This document shows, piece after piece, positions 49,054 through 50,603 of a stretch of 64,000 nt of DNA. The stretch's first letter is position 1; each line of letters begins with the position of its first letter. Position numbers and translations under genes: made by a program. Below the pieces are notes generated by a model that was not told where the DNA came from, did no database searches, and was given only the letters and a program-made list of their open reading frames with translations. This DNA is from Escherichia coli (GTDB lineage: Bacteria; Pseudomonadota; Gammaproteobacteria; Enterobacterales; Enterobacteriaceae): the NCBI RefSeq assembly GCF_044324785.1, contig NZ_CP172127.1. One strand, written 5' to 3'.

Positions 49054-49301
49054 AAAAGGTTCCTTGAAGTATGTCCCACGCTGTGGACGGTACTTACATT
49101 AAGGCACAACAGGACAAAATGGTCAATTCTTCGTTATGTAAAAAAGCGTCAGTGGATACATATTTTAATGTTATGGAAGTTAATTTAATTATTTACAATG
49201 ATGATGTAATAATGATGAATTAACATGATAAACGTAATAATTCATTAATCAGGGTTATTTTGTTTGATATATATCAATTGGAACTTTCATATGACACTTA
49301 G

Positions 49302-50496
49302 GGAAGGTGCGAACAAGTTCCTGATATGAGATCATCATATTCATCCGGAGCGCATCCCAGAGGGACATCATGAGCCATCAACTCACCTTCGCCGATAGTG
49401 AATTCAGCACTAAGCGCCGTCAGACCCGAAAAGAGATTTTCCTCTCCCGCATGGAGCAGATTCTGCCATGGCAGAATATGACCGCTGTCATCGAGCCGTT
49501 TTATCCCAAGGCGGGCAATGGCCGACGGCCCTATCCGCTGGAGACCATGCTGCGTATTCACTGCATGCAGCATTGGTACAACCTGAGCGACGGTGCCATG
49601 GAAGATGCCCTGTACGAAATCGCCTCCATGCGCCTGTTTGCCCGATTATCCCTGGATAGCGCCCTGCCGGATCGCACCACCATCATGAATTTCCGCCACC
49701 TGCTCGAGCAGCATCAACTGGCCCGTCAATTGTTCAAGACCATCAATCGCTGGCTGGCCGAAGCAGGCGTCATGATGACCCAAGGCACTTTGGTGGATGC
49801 CACCATCATTGAGGCACCCAGCTCTACCAAGAACAAAGAGCAGCAACGCGATCCGGAGATGCATCAGACCAAGAAAGGCAATCAGTGGCACTTTGGCATG
49901 AAGGCCCACATTGGTGTCGATGCCAAGAGTGGCCTGACCCACAGCCTAGTCACCACCGCGGCCAACGAGCATGACCTCAATCAGCTGGGTAATCTGCTTC
50001 ATGGTGAGGAGCAATTTGTCTCAGCCGATGCCGGCTACCAAGGAGCGCCACAGCGCGAGGAGCTGGCCGAGGTGGATGTGGACTGGCTGATCGCCGAGCG
50101 TCCCGGCAAGGTAAAAACCTTGAAGCAGCATCCGCGCAAGAACAAAACGGCCATCAACATCGAATACATGAAAGCCAGCATCCGTGCCAGGGTGGAGCAC
50201 CCGTTTCGCATCATCAAGCGGCAGTTCGGCTTCGTGAAAGCCAGATACAAGGGGCTGCTGAAAAACGATAACCAACTGGCGATGTTATTCACCCTGGCCA
50301 ACCTGTTTCGGGTGGACCAAATGATACGTCAGGGGAGAGATCTCAGTAAAAACCGGAAATAACGCCAGAAATGGTGGAAAAAATAGCCTAAATAGGCTGA
50401 TTCGATGTGTTTGCGGGAAAAAAATCGGCCCAGATCCGCGAAATTTTAATCAGCGAGTCTGCTTGGGAAGAAATGACCTGCTTATTCGCACCTTCC
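49302..50496 (+). mobile_element. IS5 insertion sequence (1195 bp)
   Basis: Terminal inverted repeats GGAAGGTGCGAA(C/T)AAG at both ends; flanked by a TTAG target-site duplication (49298-49301 and 50497-50500). Confidence 0.95.
49370..50362 (+). CDS. insH: IS5 transposase
   Basis: [12 protein letters not shown]... matches IS5 InsH nearly throughout. Confidence 0.92.
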
Positions 50497-50603
50497 TTAG
50501 AATCAATGCTCTCTATAGTGATGAATAATCATCATTCGAAGTCAGGTGGGATGCCTGTCTGAATACACCTCCTTCAGGATGTGGGGGATTCTGCTGAGCA
50601 TCT

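Follow-up and report, generated by a model that had tools for sequence, protein, structure and literature searches.

An IS5-family insertion in the -10 region of the Escherichia coli pdeF promoter and its predicted effect on FNR-dependent transcription

The yfgG-pdeF locus and its insertion sequence

The stretch of Escherichia coli DNA analysed here, called the window below, is 64 kb long and contains one insertion sequence (IS). This element is located between the divergently oriented genes yfgG and pdeF (also named yfgF), and both gene calls agree with the RefSeq annotation of homologous loci. The genes, the element and its parts are the following:

48862-49053, - strand: yfgG, 63 aa, divergent neighbour, start codon 248 bp from the left end of the IS
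49298-49301: left TTAG of the target-site duplication; relatives without the IS have TTAG once at this site
49302-50496, + strand: IS5-family insertion sequence, ISKpn26-type, 1195 bp, with its transposase co-directional with pdeF
49302-49317, + strand: left terminal inverted repeat (IRL), 16 bp, GGAAGGTGCGAACAAG
49370-50362, + strand: transposase ORF, 330 aa, DDE type, the sole long ORF of the element
50481-50496, - strand: right terminal inverted repeat (IRR), GGAAGGTGCGAATAAG as read on the - strand, matching IRL at 15 of 16 positions
50497-50500: right copy of the target-site duplication, TTAG
50604-52847, + strand: pdeF, 747 aa, intact, encoding a c-di-GMP phosphodiesterase with a MASE1-GGDEF(degenerate)-EAL organization

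PMC3718329 presents PdeF as the c-di-GMP phosphodiesterase that E. coli induces anaerobically, with links to motility, to remodelling of the surface and to behaviour under oxidative stress.

The element belongs to the IS5 group of the IS5 family. It is about 1.2 kb long, encodes a DDE transposase, is bounded by 16-bp inverted repeats and has produced a YTAR duplication, the perfect 4-bp TTAG at both of its ends being a target of the type used by the family. The inverted-repeat pattern GGAAGGTGCGAAYAAG has exactly two matches in the 64-kb window, 1195 bp apart, for 0.07 expected by chance, and the junctions of the pdeF-promoter insertion are marked by the k-mers CATATGACACTTAGGGAAGGTGCGAA and TTCGCACCTTCCTTAGAATCAATGC. 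The transposase scores 367 bits against NCBIfam model NF033581 (transpos_IS5_4, cut-off 140), and the Pfam domains DDE_Tnp_1 and DUF772 are recorded for a protein identical to it. A complete element with both terminal inverted repeats and an intact TTAG duplication had already been recognized in a preliminary description of this DNA, and these points are confirmed. An exact-protein look-up of the transposase returned copies at other loci only, the same look-up gave no match for a 51-aa ORF spanning the right IS junction, and an Rfam scan of positions 48500-51000 gave nothing meaningful.

The preliminary description had called the element IS5, which holds for the family and not for the K-12 element. 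In ISfinder practice, a nucleotide identity of roughly 95% or more designates the same IS. K-12-type IS5, for which the copy in strain NMBU-W13E19 was used, is 91.1% identical to the element over its full length, short of near-identity, and was rejected as its identity; divergence is greatest at the ends, with 84% identity over the first 100 nt and 78% over the last 177 nt. Many E. coli copies annotated in RefSeq as "IS5-like element ISKpn26 family" match the 1195-bp sequence from end to end at 100%, and RefSeq-annotated ISKpn26 copies of 1196 bp match it at 99.4-99.6%. Relative to the 1196-bp copies, the element lacks one T in the 3' part of the transposase gene, close to its end, which changes the C-terminus of the protein (...RQWERSQ is replaced; 330 aa vs. 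326 aa). Judged against the RefSeq-annotated ISKpn26 copies, the element is thus classified as an ISKpn26 member of the IS5 family. The exact transposase protein occurs in 1251 blocks of the public collection, with at least 8 copies in chromosome CP080121.1, and other copies of the 1195-bp variant are flanked by TTAG, CTAA or TTAA duplications. Since the identical transposase is both widespread and multicopy, the variant is evidently active.

The history of the site was examined by in silico reconstruction, in which the IS and one TTAG were deleted and the result was compared with relatives. The reconstructed empty site matches the IS-free relative L012 (a contig of ENA sample ERZ21883334) at all of 10,097 bp compared (100.000%), and two NCBI draft genomes, L007 and L009, match it at 100% across 8,131 bp. 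Because removal of the IS and one TTAG restores a sequence identical to that of IS-free relatives, the insertion is simple and recent, in agreement with the simple insertion between yfgG and pdeF proposed earlier. An active element of the ISKpn26 type has transposed recently, by simple cut-and-paste or copy-in, into the TTAG at the pdeF -10. The preliminary description had suggested that genomes of the same lineage be searched for the insertion; the relatives that are identical in the flanks have the empty site. The exact PdeF protein was found in 514 blocks, and every long contig examined has the empty site, in a sample biased against finding the insertion by the fact that short-read assemblies break at IS copies. 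Among 5426 complete RefSeq E. coli genomes, none carries ISKpn26 at the pdeF TTAG in the orientation seen in the window. Across the 13.5 kb that follow the IS on the right, identity to the closest complete E. coli genome is no higher than 99.1%, so that the lineage of the window is, by this measure, absent from complete genomes. A Shigella origin was considered for this reason and is unlikely, given that identical draft contigs reach 240-420 kb and that the window contains a single IS. The insertion is a strain-specific IS polymorphism and belongs to a functionally ordinary class, that of an IS inserted in a promoter. That the intact pdeF gene is identical to that of the IS-free relatives is a sign of recency only, and not of a silent gene.

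The insertion point within the pdeF promoter

The published pdeF promoter is FNR-dependent and of class II. According to PMC3718329, which cites Lacey et al. (2010), the yfgF (pdeF) promoter has an FNR box of the form TTGAT--ATCAA at -41.5 and a -10 hexamer TAGAAT; the dependence of pdeF transcription on FNR and on anaerobiosis is described there for K-12. The corresponding features of the window are the following:

49264-49277, + strand: FNR box TTGATATATATCAA of the native pdeF promoter, the sole perfect TTGAT-N4-ATCAA in the window, identical in K-12
50498-50503, + strand: pdeF -10 hexamer TAGAAT, interrupted by the insertion and restored next to pdeF by the duplication; the empty site reads CACTTAGAATCAATG
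50511, + strand: inferred native pdeF transcription start, placed at the centre of the FNR box + 41.5 as published; 5' UTR of about 93 nt

In K-12 and in the IS-free relatives, the empty site is TTGATATATATCAATTGG(T/A)ACTTTCATATGACACTTAGAATCAATG, and the TTAG target overlaps TAGAAT. Around the target, the sequence reads TTGATATATATCAATTGG(T/A)ACTTTCATATGACACTTAGAATCAATG. With a transcription start at 50511, TTAG corresponds to positions -14 to -11, and the point of entry of the IS is between -11 and -10. On the pdeF side, the sequence upstream of -14 is now the right end of the IS, which ends at -15. The preliminary description had placed the element about 110 bp upstream of the pdeF start. 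This distance is accurate: the end of the IS is 107 bp from the pdeF ATG, or 103 bp once the duplication is excluded, and these 103 bp of native sequence contain the -10, the 5' UTR and the ribosome binding site.

The FNR box and TAGAAT, which are 21 bp apart in K-12 and in the IS-free relatives, are separated by 1220 bp in the window. Because of this displacement, the window allele is, on these coordinates, without the architecture of a class II FNR promoter. An effect of the insertion on pdeF expression had been suggested earlier as a possibility, on the understanding that promoter elements lying entirely downstream of the IS would speak against it. The FNR box at 49264-49277 is instead to the left of the IS, and the element has entered within the -10 hexamer itself, which reinforces the predicted effect.

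Predicted transcription of the window allele

With this geometry, the 4-bp duplication regenerates TAGAAT next to the right end of the IS, and the FNR box is about 1.2 kb away. Since a class II activator must adjoin RNA polymerase, as follows from established promoter architecture, the native FNR-dependent promoter would be structurally disabled and FNR could not activate it. pdeF keeps its coding sequence, its 5' UTR and a -10, without an activator site or a usable -35. The gene itself would not be disrupted; its regulation would be knocked down or uncoupled. We therefore regard it as probable that in this allele the anaerobic induction of pdeF by FNR is strongly reduced or lost, with the coding sequence intact. 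A consensus promoter scan of the right junction found no sigma-70-like -35/-10 pair facing pdeF; the best -35-like hexamers read upstream of TAGAAT are GACCTG, with a 17-bp spacing, and ATGACC, with a 19-bp spacing.

Expression could also be unchanged, if the functional pdeF promoter were located wholly downstream of the IS or if another promoter were used. The 103 bp of native sequence retained on the pdeF side would be the place for such a promoter. However, the promoter scan found nothing consensus-like in these 103 bp, and the sole pdeF promoter described in the available literature is activator-dependent, with its FNR box upstream of the IS. A neutral insertion is thus highly improbable.

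Another possibility for pdeF is constitutive, FNR-independent activation, either from a hybrid promoter made of TAGAAT and the right end of the IS or from a bent-DNA/IHF module of the IS 3' end. The model for the latter is glpFK, where the 3' end of IS5 provides an IHF site and an A-tract bend that act on the native promoter 126 bp downstream (Zhang and Saier, 2009, PMC2753651). At pdeF too, the element is turned with its 3' end toward the target gene, and it entered a YTAR site within AT-rich regulatory DNA. The last ~90 bp of the element contain A-tracts, and TAGAAT, which has 5 of the 6 consensus positions, is kept at the junction. However, the glpFK mechanism needs an intact and correctly phased native promoter 126 bp downstream, whereas here the IS ends at -15 and the -35/activator region has been displaced and replaced by IRR; a glpFK-type allele was rejected on this ground. 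The 3' module itself has changed: the IHF core TCAA of IS5 is TCGA in the window element, TT is retained, some A-tracts are lost, and identity to IS5 is down to 78% over the last 177 bp. The absence of an intact promoter downstream, the altered IHF core and the 78% conservation of the 3' module make glpFK-type activation unlikely, and a hybrid promoter has against it the lack of a -35/-10 pair directed toward pdeF at the junction in the promoter scan. Taken together, FNR-independent activation is very unlikely.

The left end of the IS has to be considered as well, as it carries a promoter homologous to P(ins5A), the transposase promoter of IS5. Its elements, with positions after Figure 7 of PMC11894529, are the following:

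49307-49312, + strand: -35 element GTGCGA
49330-49335, + strand: -10 element GATCAT
49343, + strand: start-site A, at nucleotide 42 of the IS

The spacer between the -35 and the -10 is 17 bp, the length found in IS5. In IS5, the ins5A promoter has a -35 gtgcga, a -10 gatcat and an A as transcription start, so that IS5 nucleotide 1 is at -41 (PMC11894529). At fucAO, a Crp site at -61.5, upstream of IRL, activates this otherwise silent promoter and the transcript crosses IS5 to express fucAO; the resulting fusion promoter was called Pfsn (Zhou et al., NAR 2025, PMC11894529). In the same way, FNR bound at its old box might activate the silent transposase promoter of the window element from a class I-type position, and read-through of the IS would keep pdeF anaerobically induced, at an altered level.

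Several features are shared with fucAO. The IS5-family element has the same orientation as the gene that follows it (IS and pdeF are both on the + strand), a site for a CRP/FNR-family regulator is present in host DNA just upstream of IRL, and the -35, the 17-bp spacer, the -10 and the start-site A of ins5A are all kept. A sequence scan found no convincing + strand terminator between the transposase stop and pdeF. The centre of the FNR box, 49270.5, is at -72.5 from the transposase start, 11 bp or about one helical turn beyond -61.5. Class I FNR positions are -61.5 and -71.5 (PMC6343905), and -72.5 is thus 1 bp off the second of these. Natural class I FNR promoters are rare, with 1 of 23 activated promoters (PMC3688515), and the discriminator as well as the 3' 177 bp (78% identity) differ from IS5. 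Unlike the Crp site of fucAO at -61.5, the FNR site of pdeF is at -72.5 and its function is predicted from sequence; in addition, IS5 is inserted upstream of the native promoter at fucAO, whereas an ISKpn26-type element, 91% identical, destroys the native promoter at pdeF. Finally, insertions in the reverse orientation, from which no such fusion could feed pdeF, are equally common at this site, giving no sign of selection for the fusion. Anaerobic induction of pdeF maintained by read-through is therefore a plausible but unlikely outcome. The fuller proposal, in which moving the FNR box from -41.5 of pdeF to -72.5 of the transposase gene would have created an FNR-dependent class I fusion promoter, with transposase expression and transposition anaerobically inducible and pdeF transcribed by read-through, is tentative and we hold it to be rather doubtful. 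If true, the geometry would be general: a co-directional insertion of an IS5-family element at about the -10 of any class II CRP/FNR promoter would bring the activator site to about -72.5 relative to the start of transposase transcription. The forward-oriented alleles are natural material for asking whether FNR, too, can drive a fusion promoter of the fucAO type.

The surviving -10 and the co-directional IS count against the predicted loss of induction, in that read-through or a fusion promoter could sustain expression or even preserve its regulation.

Under the favoured reading, a disabled FNR-dependent promoter, the window holds a natural pdeF allele in which the gene is intact and predicted to be cut off from FNR. 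The IS-free relatives with identical flanks provide a ready-made isogenic contrast for the role of FNR-driven c-di-GMP turnover. Of note are the uncoupling of a defined FNR site from its promoter, the fusion-promoter geometry of the forward allele, and the recurrent hot spot described below.

Recurrent insertions at the pdeF promoter

The TTAG at the pdeF -10 holds IS5-family elements, in both orientations, in nine complete RefSeq E. coli genomes:

NMBU-W13E19: IS5, forward, with a TTAG duplication
TUM9812: IS5, forward, left flank lost to IS1
LCP22S3_I2, ETEC1722, ETEC1720 and LR536431: IS5, reverse, with TTAG duplications
CP53 and NT1F31: IS5, reverse, with adjacent yfgG/yfgH deletions
E5: ISKpn26, reverse, with an adjacent deletion

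Because flanks and IS sequences differ among these alleles, the comparison implies at least five (five to six) independent IS5-family events at TTAG, the window included, evenly split by orientation. An orientation bias, as would result from selection for read-through, was considered, as the first three alleles (window, NMBU-W13E19 and TUM9812) are co-directional with pdeF; it was rejected when a search with the reversed IS gave as many or more in the reverse orientation, many of them in porcine strains. The lack of bias removes the argument that the forward, fusion-capable orientation is favoured. The orientation-independent recurrence at TTAG fits promoter disruption as the common outcome.

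The sequence of the locus offers a possible cause of the recurrence. The yfgG-pdeF intergenic region has 34% GC vs. 49% for the whole window and contains seven YTAR sites, of which one, at the promoter -10, is TTAG and the others are TTAA. The preferred targets of IS5 are TTAG, CTAA and CTAG, and AT-rich destabilised regions are hot spots for IS5 and IS1 (PMC5493358). Target preference may by itself account for the recurrence; it is also possible that PdeF expression driven by FNR is selected against. The recurrent hits in the pdeF core promoter suggest either a strong structural hot spot at the -10 or repeated selection against anaerobic PdeF expression. In both cases, the TTAG at the pdeF -10 is an orientation-neutral hot spot for IS5-family elements, previously unreported: a full-text literature search combining IS5 and pdeF gave no paper, and the main text of a mutation-accumulation study (PMC5009759) makes no mention of yfg genes.

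Comparable hot spots for IS5 and IS1 have been described in AT-rich, easily melted (SIDD) regulatory regions at bglGFB, flhDC and glpFK (Humayun et al., 2017, PMC5493358). As in these systems, IS5 and IS1 have repeatedly and independently entered a short AT-rich intergenic stretch at pdeF, with TTAG as the target and in both orientations. In contrast, upstream insertions at bglGFB, flhDC and glpFK activate silent operons, and at bgl, flhDC, glpFK and fucAO IS5 is upstream of an intact promoter. At pdeF, the insertions have entered the core promoter itself and part the activator site from the -10/+1, which should lower activator-dependent transcription.

A second comparison comes from Klebsiella, where ISKpn26/IS5-like elements inactivate mgrB or its promoter. 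There too, simple insertion of an IS of the same type, with duplication of 4 bp, disrupts a small regulatory locus or its promoter. The gene, the host and the selective agent are different, and no selection is known at the pdeF site.

Other insertions affect the same region. With the start site at 50511, IS1 is present in the pdeF core promoter of the following genomes:

102651 and TUM14664: IS1, target duplication at -11 to -3
L73: IS1, target duplication at -32 to -24

More IS1 copies are found upstream of pdeF, at about -106 and about -188. An intact pdeF core (-60 to +20) is missing in 33 of 5426 complete genomes (about 0.6%), and the insertions listed here account for 12 of these 33 core-disrupted genomes. 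Over the larger 400-bp promoter region, an intact sequence is missing in 51 of 5422 complete genomes. The pdeF coding sequence is itself interrupted by IS1B (ET358), ISEc68 (21AR0133), IS3 (LR536431) and IS5 (CUVET20-1573), and LR536431 has both IS5 at the promoter TTAG and IS3 inside the coding sequence.

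The ISKpn26 copy and the sequence around it

In the position that the native FNR box formerly occupied, -48 to -35 relative to the native start site of pdeF, the right end of the insertion sequence now places TTGGGAAGAAATGA (window 50463-50476). This sequence agrees with the FNR consensus TTGAT-N4-ATCAA at 5 of 10 positions, TTG among them, and its partial likeness to an FNR box is probably due to chance. A small predicted ORF lies between yfgG and the FNR box, entirely to the left of the element:

49071-49223, + strand: 50-aa ORF, hypothetical protein WP_000017552.1 (RefSeq annotation, K-12 included)

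The ISKpn26 copy itself carries one T fewer than the 1196-bp copies, within window 50330-50362 (around IS nucleotide 1031), and this loss alters the C-terminus of the transposase, which has 330 aa vs. 326 in the 1196-bp copies. Because the 330-aa variant is widespread and multicopy, activity is evidently not abolished by the C-terminal change.

Insertions and deletions near yfgH and pdeF in other genomes

Further IS5-family targets are grouped close by in other genomes, at positions equivalent to window ~48020-48030 and ~48509-48512. Between yfgI and yfgH the target is a TTAG; at the 5' end of yfgH it is a CTAA, and within yfgH a TTAA. The loci concerned, with those of the IS1 insertions, are as follows:

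L004 and L006, 1501-1504; L005, 1497-1500; left junctions of L028, L032 and L033: nearby IS5-family target sites
L004, L013-L016 and hits H146-H168: IS1 insertions in the yfgG-pdeF intergenic region and the pdeF 5' coding sequence

In the complete E. coli genomes E5, CP53 and NT1F31, a single element bridges a nearby target site and the pdeF TTAG, and yfgG is deleted, with or without yfgH. This arrangement suggests that an element hopped locally and that an IS-mediated deletion came next. IS1 is found in 23 complete genomes at many differing positions in or near the yfgG-pdeF intergenic region and the 5' coding sequence of pdeF, three of these genomes having it within the core promoter. The core promoter is also disrupted in about 21 further genomes.

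Lineage of the core region and the neighboring prophage

Over the 13.5-kb core region, the best complete RefSeq E. coli genome reaches at most 99.1% identity, and several draft assemblies are 100% identical to the window around pdeF. The lineage of the window thus seems to be missing from the complete-genome set. The core region and the main prophage features are:

50501-64000: core region, including pdeF, ppx, ppk, purN/M, upp, uraA and others
6831-8081: integrase-sized ORF, prophage
42477-45233: tail fiber/spike ORF, 918 aa, prophage
45454-47260: holin, GH19 endolysin and spanin, prophage

This prophage, of ~40 kb, lies between guaA and yfgI (window ~6800-47300). Escherichia phage phiv142-3 covers 85% of its right 18.4 kb with 97.7% identity, and phiV10 covers 75% with 97% identity. 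Among the IS-free relatives, the same prophage end is present in L008, L010 and L012, and there is none in the drafts L007 and L009.
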